The notes below the pieces were generated by a model, which was not told the DNA's origin, did not search any database, and saw only the letters and a list, made by a program, of their open reading frames with translations. From assembly GCA_048885925.1 (NCBI GenBank), contig JBHLLG010000009.1, forward strand, positions 16,051 through 80,050: a DNA stretch of 64,000 bases, given 5' to 3'. Position 1 is the first letter of the stretch. Every line of letters begins with the position of its first letter. Shown here piece by piece: positions 51,016 to 59,930 of the stretch. Made by a program: the position numbers and the translations under genes. Source of the DNA: Candidatus Hermodarchaeota archaeon (GTDB lineage: Archaea > Asgardarchaeota > Lokiarchaeia > Sigyniarchaeales > SOKP01).

Positions 51016-51972
51016 ATGAGTAAATTAAAAGAACTCAAAAAAATACTTTTCTGTGGGTTAGAAAGTGGAGGAAAGACATCGATCCTTTTATTATTAGATA
51101 GAAGATTCAGTCTCCTGTCAACAGTTAAGCCAACTATAAAAACAAAAAGAACATTCCATATAAATTCATTACTAGGCATAACAATTATACGTTGGGATTT
51201 AGGAGGTCAAAAAAGTTATCGAAAAATATATCTGGGCAATAAAAGTAAATATTTCACAGAAATGCAATCAATTTTTTATGTTATAGATATCCAGGCACCA
51301 GAAAAGTTTGAAGAAGCAGTAATTTTTCTTCAAGATATCATGAATATCACTTCAGAATCGCATCCGGATAACTTTCAATTATTAATTTTACTCCACAAAT
51401 ATGATCCTGATATTAAAAATAAGAAAAGAATTATTGAGAATATATCATATTTAGAAAACAAACTTTCATCTATTTTTAAAGAAGTTAAATTTTCTTTATA
51501 TAAAACCTCAATATATGATGAACCAAGTTTATTAAAAGCTTTCTCTGATGGTGTTTTTTACGCTACTCATAAATCTAAGATGTTTCAAACCTTATTAAAA
51601 GAATATATGGGTAAAACCTATAATAGCTCGACACTTCTTTTGGATCAGAATTGTTTTATAATTGCTAGTAGAAGCACAAATGAAGCTTATCAAAAGATTT
51701 GTGAGGCTATTGCTCCAAGGTTAACACAAGCATTAGAGAAACTTGAAGAATGGGATATAAATACAATTGATATTGTCACAAACATAGAATTTCCAGAAAA
51801 ACAATCAGAATTTCAAAAAGAAGGAATAATTTTTCTGAGAAAATTAGATATCGGAGACATTAGACTTTATTTGGTCGCACTTTGTTTAAATAAGAAAGTA
51901 AAAGTTAAATCCTATGAATTTTTGCCCGTATTGGCAGAAAATTTAAAAAAATTATTAGAAAGTTTTGATTAG
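51016..51972 (+). CDS. small GTPase (Rag/Arf-like) with C-terminal Roadblock/longin-like extension
   Basis: GLESGGKTS, PT, WDLGGQ, HKYD, TSI, plus about 130 aa helix-strand-strand-helix C-terminal domain. Confidence 0.85.
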   Translation: MSKLKELKKILFCGLESGGKTSILLLLDRRFSLLSTVKPTIKTKRTFHINSLLGITIIRWDLGGQKSYRKIYLGNKSKYFTEMQSIFYVIDIQAPEKFEEAVIFLQDIMNITSESHPDNFQLLILLHKYDPDIKNKKRIIENISYLENKLSSIFKEVKFSLYKTSIYDEPSLLKAFSDGVFYATHKSKMFQTLLKEYMGKTYNSSTLLLDQNCFIIASRSTNEAYQKICEAIAPRLTQALEKLEEWDINTIDIVTNIEFPEKQSEFQKEGIIFLRKLDIGDIRLYLVALCLNKKVKVKSYEFLPVLAENLKKLLESFD

Positions 51973-52187: not shown

Positions 52188-53378
52188 ATGATAAAAAAAT
52201 TCAATATACATAAAGATTATGTAGGACCAAAAGCTCTATTTGATCCTAATTACATTCCACCTCGTTTATTATATAGAAAAAAAGAAGAAGATTCGCTTTT
52301 TTCAGTATTAAATGATTCAATTTCTGATGGATTTTATCTTAACGTATTATATGAAGGAATTAATGGGATTGGAAAGAAAGTAATAGTTAATAAAGTAATA
52401 AACGATCTTTTGAATCGAAATGAAGATATCCATAAAATTAATAAAATTTGTGTTGACTGTAGAGAAAAAAAAATTGAAGAATTAATTTTTTCATTACTAA
52501 GTGAGTTGAATAATCAAACAAATCTTAAAATCGATTTTAGATTTTTATTGAATTCAGATATTCACACTCTATGGAATACATTTAAGTTTATTTGTAACAA
52601 AACTGATTCTACTTTATTTATTGTATTTAATAATATAGAATATTTAGAACCAGAAATATTTAATAAGTTTTTACAGTTTGGAAAAGAGTCAAAAATAAAT
52701 CTTATTTCTACAGTAAATAAAATTCTACGACCAGGAACATTGGATTTACTTTCTGAATTTGATTTTAAAAATAAATTGAACCTTTTTTCTTATCATGAAC
52801 TTTATTCCATTCTTAAACAAAGAGTTCTATTAAGTTTTTCACGAGAAATTGATAAAGATTTAGTTAAATATATAACAGATTTAGTTTGTGAACAATATGT
52901 ATCTGTTCCTGGAAAGGGTATTGAAATTCTCAGAGATTTATACCCAATATTAAAAAGTGATAATTTATATAGCAATATTGAATTATTAGAGATTTCTCAA
53001 AACCTTTTTGATTCATTTCAGATTTCAGATGAATTCAGTATGTTAAATTATCTTTCTGAAGAAGATATATTAACTGTTATTTTCTTAGATAACCTATCAA
53101 ATTTTTTCATAAGTAAAAGAAATTTTTATATTTCTGTAAAAGAATTAGAAGAACTCTATGAAATTTCCTGTGAAATGTTAGAATATGAAAAGAATTTTAA
53201 CGAATTCCACAAATTAATAGAAACTTTGTTAAATATTGGAATTATAAAACCATCAAAAAGAAGATCTCACAAACTTAACGTTTATAATAGATTAAGCAAT
53301 CATAACTTTGAATTATTTTTCATTTTACTAAACCCAAAACAAATTAAAATTATAATTGATACGATTTTTAACCAATAG
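52188..53378 (+). CDS. Orc1/Cdc6-like AAA+ protein with degenerate Walker motifs
   Basis: FDPNYIPPRL.YR..E start, GINGIGKK, VDC, IVFNNIE, Y...EL..IL..R, C-terminal wH. Confidence 0.8.
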   Translation: MIKKFNIHKDYVGPKALFDPNYIPPRLLYRKKEEDSLFSVLNDSISDGFYLNVLYEGINGIGKKVIVNKVINDLLNRNEDIHKINKICVDCREKKIEELIFSLLSELNNQTNLKIDFRFLLNSDIHTLWNTFKFICNKTDSTLFIVFNNIEYLEPEIFNKFLQFGKESKINLISTVNKILRPGTLDLLSEFDFKNKLNLFSYHELYSILKQRVLLSFSREIDKDLVKYITDLVCEQYVSVPGKGIEILRDLYPILKSDNLYSNIELLEISQNLFDSFQISDEFSMLNYLSEEDILTVIFLDNLSNFFISKRNFYISVKELEELYEISCEMLEYEKNFNEFHKLIETLLNIGIIKPSKRRSHKLNVYNRLSNHNFELFFILLNPKQIKIIIDTIFNQ

Positions 53379-53553: not shown

Positions 53554-56500
53554 TTGACTTACATAAAAAAAATCTCTATGAGTGGTTTTAAATCGTTTGG
53601 AGATAGAACTGTTACAATTCGTCTTTCAAGTGGATTTACATGCATTGTAGGACCTAATGGTGCAGGAAAGTCAAATATTATTGATGCTCTATGTTTTTCT
53701 TTAGGCAGATTAAGTAAAAAAACAATGAGGGCTAAGAGTTTAGAAGATTTGATTTTCGCTGGCTCACGAGGAAAAAATCCGTCACAAAGAGCATCTGTTA
53801 CCTTATACTTTGATAACTCTGAAAATATTTTTCCAGGAGCTCCAGCAGATTTTGAAATTACACGTACGATCAAGAGAGGTGGTGGCGGAGGATATAAAAT
53901 GAATGGAAAAAAAGTCACTCGTCAACAAATTCTAAATGCATTAGCAGCAGCTAATATTGATCCAGATGGTAGTAATCAATTTGTCCTTCAAGGAAAAATA
54001 GTTGAATTGACCCATATGAATTCAGAAGAACGAAGGAGATTTATTGAAGAATTAATAGGACTTCAAAGATATGATGAAATGAAAGATGCCACATTGAAAG
54101 AGTTAGAAAAAGCAGAAAGAGATTTAGGACAATTTGAAGCTATCTTCAAGGAAGTATCTGCTCAATTGAAAAAAGTTGAAAAAGAGAAGAATGACGCATT
54201 AGCTTGGAAAGAATTTGATGAAAAAATAAATTTTTTAAATTCACAGTTGATTGCATTAAAAATTTCTCAATTAAGAGCAGAGGAGGATGAATTAGAACGT
54301 AAGATCGAAAACTCCTTAAAAATTGTTGAAGAACTACAAGAAAAAATAAATCGACAAGAAGATGTATTAAAACAAGAATCATTAGTTATGGATAACATTC
54401 AAAAAACCATTACAGATAAAGAAAAGGAAAGGGAGGAAATAACTGAAAAAATAACACAAATTAAAACCCAAATATCTTCAAGTCAAACTACATTAGATTT
54501 AGCAAAAAAGTCAATTGATAAATTAACTCAAGAAATTGAAGATCTGGAAAGTAAACAAATGGTACTTGAGGAGGGTCAAACATTTGATTCAATGATAGAG
54601 AGTTTATCAAAAGAAATTTTAGAGCATGAGAATCAAATAGAAGAAGCTAAAAATGAAATTGAAAAACGACAGCAAAATCAAGCTGAATTAGATGGAAAAA
54701 TAAAAAATGCGGAGGATGAAAAATCTCAATTTAAATCTGAAATTTCCAAGATTCAACAAAAAATTTCATCAAATAATGCACAAATTAAGATGCTTAGAGG
54801 AACAATTAAAAAGAATGAAGAAAAGAGGGAAAAATTACAAAATGAATTAGAAAAATTGAAAAAAGATGCTGAGAGTATTGATGAAGCCATTGAACTTACT
54901 AAAAATGCAGAATTGGAAATTAGAAAAAAAATAAACGATATAAACTCTAAAATTTCTAAAGAAAATCAAAATCAAAAAGATTTAGAAAATAAAATAAATA
55001 ATCTTCAATCTGATAAATATCAATTGAATTCTAAATTAACAGATTTTCAATCTTCCTTATCATCTTTAACTACTGAAATTAAAATGAATCAAGACAGTAT
55101 ACAAGAATTAAATGATAAGAAAATTTCTATTGAGAAAAAAATAACGGAACTAAGTAAGGGTAGAGACGCTGAAAAGGCTGTAAAGGAATTATTAAAAGAA
55201 AATGATAATATTAATAAAGAACTAGGTCAATTGAGGGCTCAATTAAAGCAAGAAAATTCATCTTTTAGGAAAAATGAGCAAGATTTAGAATTAATGAACA
55301 TGAAGAAATATTCTAATGATTCTGAAATTAATGATAACAATGCAAAGATTGATAATATCAATACAGAATTAAAAATCCTTACAAAAGAATTAAAAAAATT
55401 AGATAGGGAAAAGAATAACTTAGATCTACAAGTTAATTCCTTAGAACAAAACCTTACAACTATTAAAAATGAAACTGAAAAATTTGAAAACAAAAAAGAA
55501 AACGTTCAAAGACGTTTAGAAGAGCTTTCACAAGAAAGAGAAAATATTTCTAAAAAAATAGAGTTAACTGAAGAAGAATATGAGAAAAATACAAAAGATA
55601 TAACCGGAATTCTACAGATATTAAACATGTTAACGCAAAATATTAACATATCAGTTGAATCTATAAAAGCTAATATACAACAGTCAAATGCAGAAGCAAT
55701 TGAATCATCTGCAGATGATTTCAAAAAATTTATTCTTGACATATTCGATATTATAAAAACAGTTGAGGATATTGGAACTGATGAGGAAAAACATGCTGAA
55801 ATGACAGAAATGATAAACTCTATTATGAAAACTTTAAAAATGTTTACAGATAATGCAGACGAAACAATAAATCAACTGATAGATAAAGTTAAAGAATCTG
55901 CAGATGTTGAGGTACAAAGTTCAACAGCTACATTCGATAGTTTTGTTCAGGATTTAATGGAAATTCTTGAAAATGTGTACCTCTCTTTACGAAAACTTAC
56001 TATGTCTAAAAGTCAAGAATTATATAAACAATTGGAAGAGATCTCACAAAATATTGAATCCCAAACAAGTGATTATAATAAAATTGGAAAACAATTATCC
56101 GAAAGTAAAATTCAAACTGACCATTATACAGAGAATCTTTCATCATATAAAAAAAGAATTGAAGAAATTAATAAAAGAAACGCCGATTTAAATGATAGAA
56201 TTAAAAAAGCTGAGAAAGAAATTAATGAAAGAGAGAAAATTATAGATAATAGACAAGTAGAATCAACTAATCTTGAAAATGATATAATTAAACTCAAAGA
56301 ACTTAAGGATACCTATTGGGAAAAAATTTCTATGATACAAGATGATATTGATATCAAACAAAAAGAACAGGAAAGTTTAAGAGAAAAATTACAGGAATTG
56401 CATGGGATTCGAAATTTATTTGATAATATTACGGAAATTGATGAAAGTGTAGAAAAAATAAAGAATGTTATAGAAGAAAAGAAAAATTTAATAATAAACA

Positions 56501-58005
56501 CAGAAGAAAGTATTAAAAATATTCAAACTGAGCAAAATTCATTAGAAAAAAGTATTAACGAGCTTATTTTACAAAAAGAGAATTTTTGGGAAATTACAGA
56601 GGATTTACGAAAACAAATGGACGAAGAAAATAAAACGCTTGAAGATACAATGGATCGTCTAAGAGCACTTGAAAACGTAATGAGGTTAATTACTTCCATA
56701 GAGGATATTAAAAAAGAGAATGTTGATGCAAATAATAAAATAGAAACTTGCCAAAATGATATTAAAGGATTAAATTCTCAAGTTGAAGAAATTCAAAAGG
56801 ATGTAGGTCAAAAGGAACAAATAATAGATTCTCTAAGAAATGAAAAAACTGAAGAACTTGAGTCACAAAAAGCAGCTCAGAAAAAATTAAACAAATTAAA
56901 TAAAGATTTACAAAAATCTCAAGGAAAGTTAAATGAATTACATAAAAATAAGGAAAGAGAACAAAAAATTATAGGATTAAAGCAAGATATTAAGGACACT
57001 GAAGAACAGGTAGATTCAATATCAAAAGAATTAGTGTCTTTTAAAGAAGACTTGGATAATGAAAACGTTAAAAAACAAGAAAAACAAAAGGAGATTGATG
57101 AATATATTCAAGAAAAAGATGAATCATGGAAAAAACAAAAACAATATCAGAAGATATTAAATGATTTAAAATCAGATCTTTCGATGGAAAACTCAAAAAT
57201 AAATAATTTTGAATCAAAAAAGTTAATGTGTACTGACCAAATTGAGACTTTATTTCACCGATCTAAAGAATATGGTTCATTACCTCCTGTAACTGATGAT
57301 CTTTCAGAACCAGAATTGCAATCAGATATCGTAGAATTGACAAATAAAAAAAAGGCTCTTGAACCAGTTAACTTAAAAGCAATCGAACAATATGACACAG
57401 TTAAAGAAAGATTTGATGAAATTGATATGAGACGTCAAACAATTCAACGAGAAAGAAAATCAATTTTAGATGCAATTGATAAAATTGAACTAGAAAAAAC
57501 AAGAACATTCATGAAAGCATACCATGAGATAAATAGAGAGTTTAGTAGGATTTTTCAAAAACTTAGCCCTGGTGGTTCAGCAAAAATGATTCTAGATCGA
57601 CCAGACAAGCCATTTGAAGGAGGTATAAGTATAGAAGCAAGACCAAGAGGTAAAAAAATTAGTTCATTAGAAATATTAAGTGGTGGTGAAAAGACATTAG
57701 TAGCATTATCTTTTATTTTTGCAGTTCAAGAATTTTATCCTGCTCCATTTTATGTAATGGATGAGATAGATGCTGCTCTAGATGGACCTAATGTGCATCG
57801 TGTTTCAATAGTTATCAAAGAATTTGCTTCACAGGCTCAATTTATGGTGATCAGTCATAGGGAAGAAAATATTGTTAATGCGGATCGTATATATGGAGTC
57901 TCTATGCAACAAAGTGGAATAACAGACATTTTCAGTGTTGATTTGGAAGAAGAAGCCAAAAGACTCCTTGAACTTGAAGATATTGAACCAACTATAACTG
58001 AGTGA
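53554..58005 (+). CDS. smc: SMC ATPase with non-canonical hinge region
   Basis: GFKSF, GPNGAGKSN, LQG Q-loop, LEPVN.KA, LSGGEK, MDEIDAALD, ISH; followed by scpA and scpB. Confidence 0.95.
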   Translation: MTYIKKISMSGFKSFGDRTVTIRLSSGFTCIVGPNGAGKSNIIDALCFSLGRLSKKTMRAKSLEDLIFAGSRGKNPSQRASVTLYFDNSENIFPGAPADFEITRTIKRGGGGGYKMNGKKVTRQQILNALAAANIDPDGSNQFVLQGKIVELTHMNSEERRRFIEELIGLQRYDEMKDATLKELEKAERDLGQFEAIFKEVSAQLKKVEKEKNDALAWKEFDEKINFLNSQLIALKISQLRAEEDELERKIENSLKIVEELQEKINRQEDVLKQESLVMDNIQKTITDKEKEREEITEKITQIKTQISSSQTTLDLAKKSIDKLTQEIEDLESKQMVLEEGQTFDSMIESLSKEILEHENQIEEAKNEIEKRQQNQAELDGKIKNAEDEKSQFKSEISKIQQKISSNNAQIKMLRGTIKKNEEKREKLQNELEKLKKDAESIDEAIELTKNAELEIRKKINDINSKISKENQNQKDLENKINNLQSDKYQLNSKLTDFQSSLSSLTTEIKMNQDSIQELNDKKISIEKKITELSKGRDAEKAVKELLKENDNINKELGQLRAQLKQENSSFRKNEQDLELMNMKKYSNDSEINDNNAKIDNINTELKILTKELKKLDREKNNLDLQVNSLEQNLTTIKNETEKFENKKENVQRRLEELSQERENISKKIELTEEEYEKNTKDITGILQILNMLTQNINISVESIKANIQQSNAEAIESSADDFKKFILDIFDIIKTVEDIGTDEEKHAEMTEMINSIMKTLKMFTDNADETINQLIDKVKESADVEVQSSTATFDSFVQDLMEILENVYLSLRKLTMSKSQELYKQLEEISQNIESQTSDYNKIGKQLSESKIQTDHYTENLSSYKKRIEEINKRNADLNDRIKKAEKEINEREKIIDNRQVESTNLENDIIKLKELKDTYWEKISMIQDDIDIKQKEQESLREKLQELHGIRNLFDNITEIDESVEKIKNVIEEKKNLIINTEESIKNIQTEQNSLEKSINELILQKENFWEITEDLRKQMDEENKTLEDTMDRLRALENVMRLITSIEDIKKENVDANNKIETCQNDIKGLNSQVEEIQKDVGQKEQIIDSLRNEKTEELESQKAAQKKLNKLNKDLQKSQGKLNELHKNKEREQKIIGLKQDIKDTEEQVDSISKELVSFKEDLDNENVKKQEKQKEIDEYIQEKDESWKKQKQYQKILNDLKSDLSMENSKINNFESKKLMCTDQIETLFHRSKEYGSLPPVTDDLSEPELQSDIVELTNKKKALEPVNLKAIEQYDTVKERFDEIDMRRQTIQRERKSILDAIDKIELEKTRTFMKAYHEINREFSRIFQKLSPGGSAKMILDRPDKPFEGGISIEARPRGKKISSLEILSGGEKTLVALSFIFAVQEFYPAPFYVMDEIDAALDGPNVHRVSIVIKEFASQAQFMVISHREENIVNADRIYGVSMQQSGITDIFSVDLEEEAKRLLELEDIEPTITE

Positions 58006-58020
58006 AATAGGTGAGTAAAA

Positions 58021-59022
58021 ATTTCAAATAATCAACAAAATTCTCAAAAAAAATATAATTTCAATGAATGGACTGTAAAAGAATTAAGAGAATTCGCCTC
58101 AAAAAATAATATAAGTATTCCTTCAAAATCGAAGAAAAAAGAGATTATAGAATTACTTCAAAATATAGTATCTAATCCTGAATTTGTAGATAGAACTCAA
58201 GAAATTGAAGAACTAAATGTAGAATTAGTTGCTGAATTTGATGAGGAGGAAGATCTTGCTTTATTGAGAAAAGAAAAGGCGGAATTAAAGTTTTGGCAAA
58301 AACCTCCATTTTCAAGCCTATTGGATACTGAAATCGCAAAAGAATCAGAAATCGCATTTTATGATTTATCAAAATTGGTTGATGAATTTTTTGACAAGAT
58401 GCTTCATGAAGAATTGATCAATTATAAGATTTCTGGAATAGCGCTTAAAACTTCAGCAACTTTGCATCATTATAAAATTTCCAGTATAATAAAAGAAGAG
58501 GAAGAAATCCAAAAAAGAGAAGAATTAGAAAAATTCAGACAAAGACATTCTAGATCAATTCCAAAAGCATTACCTCAACCAATTTCACCTAAAATGCAAA
58601 TAGCTACTAAAGATGAATTATTTGATGCAATGAGATCTGCTATTATTGAAGTTATGCAAAATAAAGAAAAATTAAGAAGAAAAAGAATGAGAAGAGAAGA
58701 ACTTAAACAACAAATGATTCAAATGAAATCTAAAGCACAATTGCCTAAAGAACTTTTAAAACATATTAGCGGAAGGGAACAAACTGTAGAAGAATTACAT
58801 GAATCATGGTATAATAGAATAAAAGCTTCAATTAATTTAAATAATAAAAATATGAGTTTTTATGATTTAGCATCAATTATAAAAGATGGAGAAAAAAGTA
58901 GTTTAGGACGTAAATTTGCATTTGTAAGATTATTTTTAGCTTTGATGTTTTTATCTACTGGAAATAGATTGAATCTATCGCAAGATGAAGATTTTCAAAA
59001 TATTTCAATTAATTTAAAATAA
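58021..59022 (+). CDS. scpA: kleisin ScpA with N-terminal HeH/SAP/Rho_N-like extension
   Basis: DLSKLVDEF..SGIAL..SA.L...K and C-terminal FLALMFL..G...L.Q...F..I.I; frame open from 58015 and includes WTVKELREFA...KKEIIELL. Confidence 0.85.
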   Translation: MSNNQQNSQKKYNFNEWTVKELREFASKNNISIPSKSKKKEIIELLQNIVSNPEFVDRTQEIEELNVELVAEFDEEEDLALLRKEKAELKFWQKPPFSSLLDTEIAKESEIAFYDLSKLVDEFFDKMLHEELINYKISGIALKTSATLHHYKISSIIKEEEEIQKREELEKFRQRHSRSIPKALPQPISPKMQIATKDELFDAMRSAIIEVMQNKEKLRRKRMRREELKQQMIQMKSKAQLPKELLKHISGREQTVEELHESWYNRIKASINLNNKNMSFYDLASIIKDGEKSSLGRKFAFVRLFLALMFLSTGNRLNLSQDEDFQNISINLK

Positions 59023-59063: not shown

Positions 59064-59930
59064 ATGGAAAAAAATCTTGATGATGATCTTAAAGAAGAAT
59101 CAGAAGAAGATTCTGAAGAAGCTTTTAATGAATTTTCTAAAAATCTTCAAGAAGAAGAAAAAGAATTTCTAGATATTAAAGAAAGTAATCAAGAAATTGA
59201 AGAATCCCCCATAAGTAAAATTGATGAGGGTGAAATTGTAACGGAAAGTGAAGAACTTAAGATAATCAGTTTAGATAATAACGTTGAAGAACAATCTTTA
59301 GAGCATGAGATAGTTAAAGAAGTTCCGTTAGAATTAGATATAAAAGACTTTCATAGAAATTTAATTGAAGCTGCTCTCTATGCGGCGGGAGGTCCTTTAA
59401 CAATTGAGGAACTATCAACTAAATTAGAACTTCCTAAGAAAGAAGTGGAAATTTTAGTAAATGAATTAGCTTTTGATTACTTAGAGCGCGTTACAGCTCT
59501 AATTATAGCACAAATTGGAGATAGATACCAAATGCAGATTAGACCAGAATATACTGAAAAAGTTTCAAAGTTTGCTAAAGGAGGAGCCATAGCTGAACGT
59601 TATCTTAGAACTTTAACTGTAATAGCTTTAAAACAGCCAATTTTGAAGTCAACAGTTATCAAATTACGAGGAACTGGTGCATATGAACATATAAAATATC
59701 TTCTAGACAATGAATTTATCAATGCTGTTAAAAAAGGAAGATCTCATGAGTTAACCACCACAGATAAATACGCAGATATGTTTGGTTTACCAAGAGATAT
59801 CAGACAAATGAAATATGTTATGATTACTCAATTGGGAATCGAACAGGTAATGAGAAATGGTAGTTCGGATGATGTTGAACAAGGAGATCAAAATAAACCT
59901 TTAAGTGATGATGATATAGGAGAAGAATAG
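59064..59930 (+). CDS. scpB: SMC-Scp complex subunit ScpB
   Basis: IEAALYAAG.PL, LRTL.VIA.KQP.....I..RG......I..L....I...GR....TT..Y...FGL; acidic N-terminal extension. Confidence 0.93.
   Translation: MEKNLDDDLKEESEEDSEEAFNEFSKNLQEEEKEFLDIKESNQEIEESPISKIDEGEIVTESEELKIISLDNNVEEQSLEHEIVKEVPLELDIKDFHRNLIEAALYAAGGPLTIEELSTKLELPKKEVEILVNELAFDYLERVTALIIAQIGDRYQMQIRPEYTEKVSKFAKGGAIAERYLRTLTVIALKQPILKSTVIKLRGTGAYEHIKYLLDNEFINAVKKGRSHELTTTDKYADMFGLPRDIRQMKYVMITQLGIEQVMRNGSSDDVEQGDQNKPLSDDDIGEE

Follow-up and report, generated by a model that had tools for sequence, protein, structure and literature searches.

Two features, a hinge and an arm of ~50 nm, count as hallmarks of SMC-kleisin motors, and both are given roles in models of DNA entrapment and loop extrusion. 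In Rad50/SbcC, an apex without a globular hinge joins two arms, and RecN dimerises through its coiled-coil ends. As far as the available portions of the sources named here go, the Rad50 hook was reported to be interchangeable with the SMC hinge (PMC6969161), which makes replacement of a hinge plausible; a 'hinge-less' SMC clade with SMC-type heads and a coiled coil and with neither a hinge nor a CxxC hook was described from marine Actinobacteria (Sussfeld et al. 2025, PMC12153180); archaeal SMC paralogs were divided into canonical aSMC and SMC5/6-related aSMC (PMC8665677); an extra duplication of SMC complexes in Asgard archaea was described via Nse3-like kites (preprint 10.1101/2024.01.07.573240); and the allowed Smc arm lengths were found to come in steps of ~91-99 aa (Burmann et al. 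2017, PMC5344682). Hinge-less SMC-like proteins (Rad50, RecN, ASRP, the actinobacterial clade), hinge substitutes and multiple Asgard SMC operons are already known. Here, we analysed a stretch of 64,000 nucleotides from Candidatus Hermodarchaeota archaeon (assembly GCA_048885925.1, contig JBHLLG010000009.1, positions 16,051 to 80,050; in the following, the window), which is AT-rich (GC content 0.25-0.31) and encodes a long-armed SMC protein of 1483 aa without the globular hinge of canonical Smc. The gene and the two halves of its ATPase head are located as follows, coordinates being those of the window.

53554-58005, + strand: gene of the long-armed, hinge-less SMC (TTG start, stop codon included; 1483 aa; protein P0001).
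53554-54102, + strand: N-terminal half of the ATPase head (aa 1-183), which contains Walker A (aa 33-40) and over aa 2-183 matches the N-fragment of the Pyrococcus SMC head (1xew_X).
57487-58005, + strand: C-terminal half of the ATPase head (aa 1312-1483), of which aa 1312-1474 are matched by the Pyrococcus SMC head chains 3kta_B and 1xew_Y.

A Pfam search for SMC_hinge (PF06470), proposed as a check in the original prediction of a hinge-less SMC at this locus, gave no match at E<=1 in the 1483-aa protein, nor anywhere in the window's assembly (95% complete) at the same threshold; as controls, the search was positive in 11 out of 14 genomes, and a canonical SMC (L002) revealed its hinge with 116 bits. 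None of the 61 PDB sequence matches of the protein was a hinge chain, and a canonical SMC from a sister genus matched the hinge chains 4rsj, 4u4p and 3nwc in the same kind of search. The pattern G-x6-G-x3-GG was found neither in the protein nor in any of 107 full-length family members. The stretch between aa 137 and 1244 is free of proline, and aa 193-1240 hold 13 glycines. Cysteines occur at positions 30, 47, 1066 and 1226 only, so that there is no hook, and within residues 501-1000 a CxxC motif was present in 0/107 family members. The predicted lack of both motifs was, thereby, borne out for the protein and for the family.

For a more sensitive comparison, a profile was built from 13 canonical Asgard SMCs (1186 positions, the hinge at ~541-652). 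It matched P0001 at residues 1-396 and 983-1469, the latter at profile positions 695-1182, and the middle of the protein gave weak arm-to-arm matches only. In the four long forms listed, of 12 that were searched, profile positions 522-674 remained uncovered; both controls, a divergent canonical SMC and an SMC5/6-like SMC, were covered across the hinge positions. We conclude that the globular hinge of canonical Smc is absent from the protein. The original prediction had placed the missing hinge mid-protein, at aa 677-821 (55582-56016), and Pfam, the PDB search, the canonical profile and two structural models agree in giving no hinge.

In these AlphaFold2 models, made with family alignments, the region is all helix without a strand. 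Model 1 (aa 611-880) is a helical hairpin with a predicted local distance difference test score (pLDDT) of 82.2, and model 2 (aa 440-1040, 601 residues) reached a pLDDT of 82.9, its helix being broken at aa 535-538, 710-712, 742-744 (the turn), 782-783, 816-819 and 951. An all-helical hairpin of ~415 residues (aa ~539-950) is, as modelled, what stands in place of the hinge. Outside the tip, which is treated below, the arms are composed of the following parts.

54103-55155, + strand: N-strand of the arm (aa 184-534), ending before the first helix break; it aligns with canonical arms to ~aa 400-495.
55156-55167, + strand: conserved helix break at aa 535-538 (Lys-Gly-Arg-Asp) in model 2, a Gly-containing motif kept in the family consensus.
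55168-55575, + strand: N-strand of the extra hairpin (aa 539-674), a variable coiled coil, all helix in both models (column entropy 1.05-1.74 in windows over 541-660).
56074-56403, + strand: C-strand of the extra hairpin (aa 841-950), all helix in both models, with an entropy of 1.3-1.8 and 90-aa repeats.
56404-56406, + strand: helix break at Gly951 in model 2, the Gly being conserved in the family consensus.
56407-57486, + strand: C-strand of the arm (aa 952-1311), which aligns with canonical arms from ~aa 983 and has repeats at offsets 90 and 180.

On the N-strand, coverage by the canonical-SMC profile ended at residue 396 in P0001 and reached ~494-498 in two other long forms. The helix breaks at 535-538 and 951 lie opposite each other, each 207 residues from the hairpin turn, and both are conserved Gly sites; this matched pair may form a joint or elbow where the modelled extra hairpin starts.

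With boundaries taken from PDB matches, the arms of the long form (aa 184-744 and 745-1311) have a mean length of ~564 residues, and those of the canonical SMC of genome G040 (182-510 and 678-1034) of ~343 residues, which amounts to ~221 extra residues per strand. As the rise of a coiled coil is ~0.15 nm per residue, the arm length is estimated at ~83 nm for the long form versus ~50 nm for the canonical one, or ~1.6 times. Profile comparison with hhalign revealed tandem repeats on both strands, namely at offsets 98 and 195 on the N-strand (aa 249-631, 54298-55446; 97.2% and 96.3%, E 3e-11 and 2e-9) and at offsets 90 and 180 on the C-strand (aa 866-1220, 56149-57213; 92.8-96.9%, E 4e-7 to 1.5e-10). 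Between-strand controls gave 64-84% (E 6e-5 to 8e-6). The N-strand peaks were present in 6/6 long forms and offset 90 was the top peak of the C-strand in 5/6; in two canonical SMCs such peaks were not seen. Judged by these profiles, the arms of the long form are built of tandem repeats of ~90-98 aa. Such a unit is similar in size to the ~91-99-aa period given by Burmann et al. 2017 (PMC5344682), and the ~221-residue extension per strand corresponds to roughly two units, from which we infer a link to the period of allowed arm lengths. Neither the lengthening of the arms nor their repeats had been noted in the original prediction.

At the apex, the hairpin ends in a tip with the following elements.

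55576-55764, + strand: tip module 1 (aa 675-737), aligned in register with module 2 by hhalign (entropy 0.34 at aa 691-720).
55777-55794, + strand: hairpin turn (aa 742-747), the sole non-helical stretch between the strands in model 1, a break at 742-744 in model 2 and the region of lowest pLDDT.
55789-55977, + strand: tip module 2 (aa 746-808), a repeat of module 1 at +71 according to hhalign.
55978-56073, + strand: conserved stretch behind module 2 (aa 809-840; entropy 0.57-0.68 over aa 781-840), interrupted in model 2 by a helix break at 816-819.

The internal repeat reported in the original prediction was found again, residues 689-737 and 760-808 being identical at 12/49 positions without a gap at an offset of 71. 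This offset is the best ungapped diagonal (BLOSUM62 score 88), and none of 300 shuffles reached that score (mean 36.6, maximum 63). Other coiled-coil windows of the same protein gave repeat scores of 77-134 with 9-18 identities; since arm windows score equally high, the single-sequence repeat does not rise above the coiled-coil background, and the raw score was rejected as evidence of duplication in favour of a profile test. With profiles from 107 sequences, hhalign aligned module 1 (668-741) with module 2 (739-812) at 97.6% (E 3.1e-12) over 63 columns in register, and 16 controls against arm segments gave <=3.8%. At the profile level the tip duplication is, hence, real, the alignment describing a tandem module of ~71 aa with one copy per strand. 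In model 2, the breaks at 710-712 and 782-783 fall at equivalent positions of the two modules.

Column entropy over the 107 sequences was as low as 0.34 at aa 691-720 and 0.57-0.68 at aa 781-840, compared with 1.0-1.8 for the bulk of the arms and 0.1-0.5 for the bulk of the heads; within the arms, strong conservation is confined to the tip (aa ~675-840). The models, the entropy values and hhalign together support the prediction that the apex is a new conserved, all-helical element derived from a duplicated module. The hydrophobic fraction of the tip modules is 0.41, at the level of a globular domain, similar to the heads (0.37-0.41) and above the arms (0.27-0.31), and the net charge is -8 for aa 668-741 and -11 for aa 742-812. 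A tip of this hydrophobic and acidic composition fits an extra buried surface, such as a bundle, rather than a DNA-binding surface. The fold search that had been suggested did not provide a specific fold for the tip, as neither of two fold searches with model 1 returned one and the top Foldseek rows, i.e., chemoreceptor hairpins, Smc arm fragments and dynein stalks, are generic antiparallel coiled-coil hairpins. A search of the ESM Atlas with aa 668-830 was uninformative (best score 0.89, to unnamed clusters). Weak matches to a portion of the tip module, at 42% identity and E 2e-4 to 7e-4, came from small frames of 141 aa in two genomes of the window's genus (G008:C86:56065-56262 and G177:C41:171524-171712).

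The ATP-binding cassette heads of the protein are intact, with the signature motif at ~aa 1375-1380 and Walker B at ~aa 1399-1406 as read from the translation. SMC_N (Pfam) spans residues 3-1457 of the 1483 aa (E 2.7e-36), and the score on the NCBIfam model TIGR02168 was 619.3 bits, above the cut-off of 567.35. The best PDB match of the heads is Pyrococcus Smc 5xei with 404 bits, where a canonical Loki SMC gets 411 bits; Rad50 chains match the heads with <=28 bits in the PDB sequence search. The gene is followed by two further genes.

58015-59022, + strand: kleisin-like gene, an open frame from stop to stop of 335 codons, in which the first ATG/GTG/TTG is a TTG at 58264.
59064-59930, + strand: ScpB (kite), matching PF04079 over aa 100-244 (E 1.1e-32) and TIGR00281 with 93.5 bits (cut-off 89.2).

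This is the only ScpB above cut-off in the window's assembly, and the order SMC-kleisin-ScpB is the same in the genomes G040 and G147. Assignment of the kleisin is less direct. SMC_ScpA (PF02616) matched the window's frame with E 0.016 (15.7 bits), below the cut-off of 24.6, and among four orthologs SMC_ScpA matched 2/4 and Rad21_Rec8 2/4. A profile of four kleisin sequences matched, in the correct order, 6ivh_A, a chain of the ScpA N-domain (E 0.0036), and, more weakly, ScpA C-domains (E ~0.3). In the window, the N-terminus gave Ish1/Rho_N/HeH matches (E 2e-5 to 6e-4, below the cut-offs); the N-terminal appendages vary among genomes, G040 and G147 having a Cys/His motif and G089 a Lys/Ser-rich tail. 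The gene product is, by these comparisons, probably a divergent, weakly ScpA-like kleisin with an extra HeH-like N-terminal part. The claim that heads, ScpA and ScpB are all standard, consequently, stood for the heads and ScpB and was overstated for ScpA. With the heads close to Smc, ScpB above its cut-offs and a kleisin-like gene in between, the proposed Smc-ScpAB type was upheld, and the SMC is classified from its sequence as a condensin-type SMC ATPase of the Smc-ScpAB type from a conserved paralog family.

The 83 open codons before the TTG of the kleisin (58015-58263) encode the HeH/SAP-like motif without an ATG, GTG or TTG. The frame is 52% identical to the gene at the same position in G040, the similarity starting 54 nt upstream of the TTG; the open frame upstream of this codon points to an unusual start codon or a sequence error. 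ScpB has an acidic N-terminal extension of ~95 aa (59064-59360), as does its G040 ortholog. Downstream of ScpB, on the opposite strand, a class I aminoacyl-tRNA synthetase is encoded. The open reading frames upstream of the SMC comprise, according to Pfam, a HAD hydrolase, a CN hydrolase, a Rag-like GTPase and a frame of 396 aa, and no nuclease family was found by Pfam among the neighbouring frames scanned on either side of the SMC. The GTPase (51016-51972, + strand, ~1.6 kb upstream of the SMC) belongs to the Gtr1/RagA family of small GTPases (E 5e-24), a eukaryote-like GTPase typical of Asgard genomes. The 396-aa frame directly upstream of the SMC (52188-53378, + strand) matched no Pfam family at E<=0.001, its only match, a weak one, being to AAA_22 (E 0.0037).

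A search with the apex region returned 171 homologs, mostly of ~1470-1487 aa, of which all the named ones are labelled as Asgard metagenome-assembled genomes (Promethearchaeota, Lokiarchaeia and similar). Among the 120 matches listed of these 171, PF06470 was given for none. PF24161 and PF23649, which are listed for family members, are the generic coiled-coil families CCDC39 and FKBP15; neither had a match in the own genome. In an exhaustive search of 1.84 billion representative proteins, 29 carried the module, and in the full-length ones it was at the same position. In what follows, G000 denotes the window's own assembly, f1 its family and f2 the sister family. The module was present in 52/61 genomes of f1 (51 at E<=2e-50) and in 13/13 of its genera. 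The Asgard survey that had been proposed as a check, extended to a phylum sample, found the module in 28/151 genomes, i.e., in G000, in 23/25 of f1, in 2/2 of f2 (~30% identity) and, marginally, in two of family f4, with the long form in the same gene order in G040 and G147 as stated above; in 121 genomes of 24 other Asgard families the module was not found. Cross-matches suggest that the module also occurs in two more families of the same order, and within the searches made the long SMC appears restricted to one order of Lokiarchaeia-type Asgard archaea. Full-length frames of the long form (~1480-1500 aa) were recovered from dozens of genomes, on contigs of up to 2.3 Mb.

PF06470 itself was detected in 107/151 genomes of the phylum sample. 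In f1, strong hinge matches lie in frames of ~1196-1200 aa and were seen in five genomes, which belong to genera g3 and g6; nineteen genomes have a weak one only (E 1e-5 to 1e-10), in frames mostly of ~1150-1170 aa. The strong-hinge protein is a canonical SMC, which scores 116 bits for the hinge and 835 bits on TIGR02169 and has an ScpB of its own adjoining; the weak-hinge protein is a paralog of the SMC5/6-like kind (hinge 28.7 bits), and Pfam gives no family for the neighbours of its gene. G040 and G147 also carry the long form, so that in some genera the long form, a canonical SMC and an SMC5/6-like SMC occur together as three SMC systems. Most genera of f1 keep the long form, with no canonical SMC found in them. 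In the window's genus, the long form and the SMC5/6-like SMC are present in 4/4 genomes, and neither a canonical SMC nor a strong hinge match was found in these four. The long form is the only SMC-sized match to PF02463 in the window's assembly, and in the window's genus its complex is probably the main condensin.

The tip module was encountered outside SMC proteins as well, in a head-less protein family of f2 with frames of ~930-1290 aa (P0141, P0143, P0147, P0148), which contain two tandem copies of the double tip module.

L027:678-3755 (equal to G089:C26), - strand: head-less tip-module protein P0141, with copies of the double module at ~aa 70-224 and ~320-470.

The modules are followed by a non-coiled-coil domain and a Lys-rich tail, which gave a weak match of the histone-H1-like type (HC2). 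Of the f2 genomes, 9/14 contain strong orthologs, and one fragment was found besides. No such protein was found in 41 f1 genomes or in G000, the f1 matches (38/41) being cross-matches to the long SMC. Occurrence in the head-less protein implies that the module can work outside an SMC. In G089, a JAB/MPN protein adjoins the head-less gene.

The phylogenetic position was determined from a quick maximum-likelihood tree of 35 rows, among them 12 long forms, 13 canonical Asgard SMCs and 8 SMC5/6-like SMCs, all from Asgard archaea and with no SMC from elsewhere; coiled-coil columns were kept in the alignment (1162/1648), and L027 was dropped for the approximately unbiased (AU) test. The 12 long forms form one clade with a support of 100 in the SH-like approximate likelihood-ratio test (SH-aLRT) on a stem of 0.78 and group with the canonical Asgard SMCs (SH-aLRT 98), the 8 SMC5/6-like rows being a separate clade (SH-aLRT 99). 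BLASTP of the long SMC with the SMC5/6-like paralog of the same genus gave 25% identity, over the N-terminal head only. In the free tree, the long clade is outside all 13 canonical Asgard SMCs (support 83). Constraining it to group with the four canonical SMCs of the same order was not worse (lnL +1.31, p-AU 0.528), so that the tree does not fix whether the duplication was old or took place inside the order; the distribution would agree with a duplication within the order and rapid change after it. The long SMC is classed on sequence grounds as a lineage-restricted paralog. This status, the coexistence with hinged and SMC5/6-like SMCs and the ambiguity of the tree give no support for a link to the eukaryotic root; the suggested relevance to SMC evolution near that root is, therefore, not sustained, the module having been found in one order and in none of the 121 genomes of other families.

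How the two subunits meet at an apex without hinge is a matter of interpretation. We regard it as likely that the tip is the constitutive dimer contact, formed as a helical bundle of two hairpin tips, in a complex otherwise like Smc-ScpAB. Two SMC subunits would be held at the tip by this bundle, which would replace the hinge as in other hinge-less SMC-like proteins, and the outcome would be an SMC-kleisin-kite ring or rod of ~1.6 times the usual length. Its action on DNA would proceed via heads, kleisin and ScpB as in Smc-ScpAB, and hinge-type DNA contacts would either not be needed or be provided by the kleisin through its basic or HeH-like N-terminal appendage. Instead of associating with itself, the conserved and hydrophobic tip might be a docking site for another protein, or the apex might be open with the SMCs meeting only at the ATP-engaged heads and via the kleisin. 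The head-less f2 protein, with its double modules and H1-like tail, lends this some weight, as the module could pair heterotypically, and so do the best weak structural analogues, chemoreceptor hairpins and dynein stalks, which bind partners through their tips. Still, no head-less partner was found in the 41 genomes of the window's family, and a pseudo-symmetric, duplicated tip is how a bundle-forming contact is expected to look; moreover, all SMC-type complexes that have been studied well are, to our knowledge, joined by a constitutive dimer contact at a site distal to the heads, a general rule that speaks against docking or an open apex. We, therefore, judge this alternative unlikely, albeit to be taken seriously. 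Prediction of a two-copy complex of aa 641-860 scored 0.00 in both runs, which were made without controls and count neither for nor against binding.

Long arms without a hinge are also found in Rad50 and RecN, and weak NCBIfam matches of the protein to ASRP (171 bits) and Rad50 (57-111 bits on five models, E<=1e-15) could mean that it is a Rad50-, RecN- or ASRP-like repair protein with merely SMC-like heads. These scores are, however, far under the cut-offs (300 for ASRP, 700-1087 for Rad50), the CxxC hook is missing, the heads match Smc chains with 404 bits as opposed to <=28 bits for Rad50 chains, the neighbours are a kleisin and ScpB rather than a nuclease, and on the tree the protein groups with canonical Asgard SMCs, which together make a repair protein very improbable. 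That a hinge is present and has diverged past sequence recognition is less credible again: the SMC5/6-like paralog, at 28.7 bits, demonstrates that Asgard hinges can be weak, but here PF06470 was not matched at E<=1, the hinge positions of the canonical profile were never covered in the four long forms listed, the 601 modelled residues contain zero strands, proline is missing and glycine scarce (13) over aa 193-1240, and a continuous hairpin with matched breaks takes up the region. That the gene is decaying or misassembled, such as a chimera or a redundant paralog being lost, is scarcely to be believed either. The coexistence of a canonical SMC in two genera and the kleisin frame without a canonical start codon before 58264 would agree with decay; against it stand full-length frames in dozens of genomes on long contigs, strongly conserved heads and tip with intact ATPase motifs, and retention of the long form in most f1 genera, in which no canonical SMC was found.

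Several observations weigh against the picture of a hinge-free Smc-ScpAB complex closed by its tip. On TIGR02169, the protein scored 646.3, below the cut-off of 729.4 and split over 7 stretches, where a single stretch gave 835 bits for the canonical SMC L002. The kleisin was assigned from weak scores and its gene position, and the acidic tip cannot replace the DNA-binding surface of a hinge. Model confidence is lowest at the tip (pLDDT 52-79), and its inner helix breaks are placed differently by the two models, so that the predicted fold of the tip is tentative. Foldseek of model 1 against the PDB gave 0 matches at E<=0.001, and the best Z score of a wide VIA-align search with the same model, 13.2 to a dynein stalk, is within the range common for long helices. 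In the window's assembly, no copy was found of the SMC5/6-like paralog (~1160 aa; L001, G008:C44) that 4/4 genomes of the same genus possess, by which the SMC set of the organism may be incompletely assembled; its absence could be an assembly gap or a real loss. With these points taken into account, it is a tentative and somewhat doubtful proposition that, in most genera of f1, the main chromosome-folding motor is a hinge-free SMC-kleisin-kite complex, closed by a constitutive four-helix acidic tip and with arms about two superhelical periods longer through tandem duplication of 90-98-aa units.

If a hinge-free principal motor of this kind exists, it would show by a natural example that SMCs can function without the hinge fold and without contacts between hinge and DNA, and that changes in arm length are quantised. 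The surprise for a specialist would be a condensin that is probably the principal one, has no hinge and bears arms of ~83 nm. Together with the hinged paralogs in sister genera, the long SMC provides a natural comparison set on the need for a hinge in loop extrusion or loading. It also bears on the division of work among several Asgard SMC complexes, and on the constraint of arm length, for which the steps of ~91-99 aa in the available part of PMC5344682 are the point of comparison. By itself, it does not inform on the origin of eukaryotic SMCs.

No description of a long-armed, hinge-less Asgard SMC family or of its tip was found in the full-text literature, subscription papers and supplements aside, and the supplementary text of 10.1101/2024.01.07.573240 may bear on priority; a prior description of the apex, which the original prediction had named as evidence against novelty, was, within that scope, not encountered. 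As far as the accessible parts of PMC8665677, PMC7055376, 10.1101/2024.01.07.573240, PMC12153180, PMC12993045 and PMC5344682 go, the long SMC is undescribed in them.

Compared with the systems that are known, the long SMC shares with Rad50/SbcC an SMC-like head, an antiparallel coiled coil of great length and the lack of a globular hinge at the apex. It differs from them in having no CxxC zinc hook, in its score on the best Rad50 model (110.8 bits versus a cut-off of 700) and in its partner genes, which are a kleisin and ScpB, not Mre11. RecN, ASRP and arcadin-4 are alike as SMC-like ATPases without a hinge, but they are much shorter and have no kleisin/ScpB operon; the long SMC scored 36 bits on the RecN model TIGR00634 (cut-off 407.85), 170.9 bits on the ASRP model NF045487 (cut-off 300) and 46 bits on the Rkd4 model, well below its cut-off. 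The marine actinobacterial hinge-less clade, which could be compared by description only, is bacterial, and in the available text of PMC12153180 no duplicated tip, arm lengthening or ScpAB operon is described for it.

Among the archaeal systems, the SMC5/6-like paralog of this lineage keeps a weak hinge and is the outgroup on the tree. Next to the multi-operon SMC-kleisin-kite systems known from Asgard archaea (PMC8665677; 10.1101/2024.01.07.573240), the long-SMC operon is a further one, with a ScpB-type kite, and in the portions at hand these two accounts of archaeal SMC paralogs mention neither hinge loss nor long arms. Canonical Smc-ScpAB, as represented by Pyrococcus and Bacillus subtilis Smc and by TIGR02169/TIGR02168, is alike in its ATP-binding cassette heads, its antiparallel coiled-coil arm and the kleisin and ScpB genes alongside. 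In contrast to it, the long form is without PF06470, contains an extra hairpin of ~415 residues, has arms of ~564 versus ~343 residues, bears a conserved acidic helical tip, is encoded beside a divergent kleisin with an HeH-like N-terminus and stays below the cut-off of TIGR02169. The long SMC, thus, lacks one defining feature of the Smc family, the hinge, while it possesses others.

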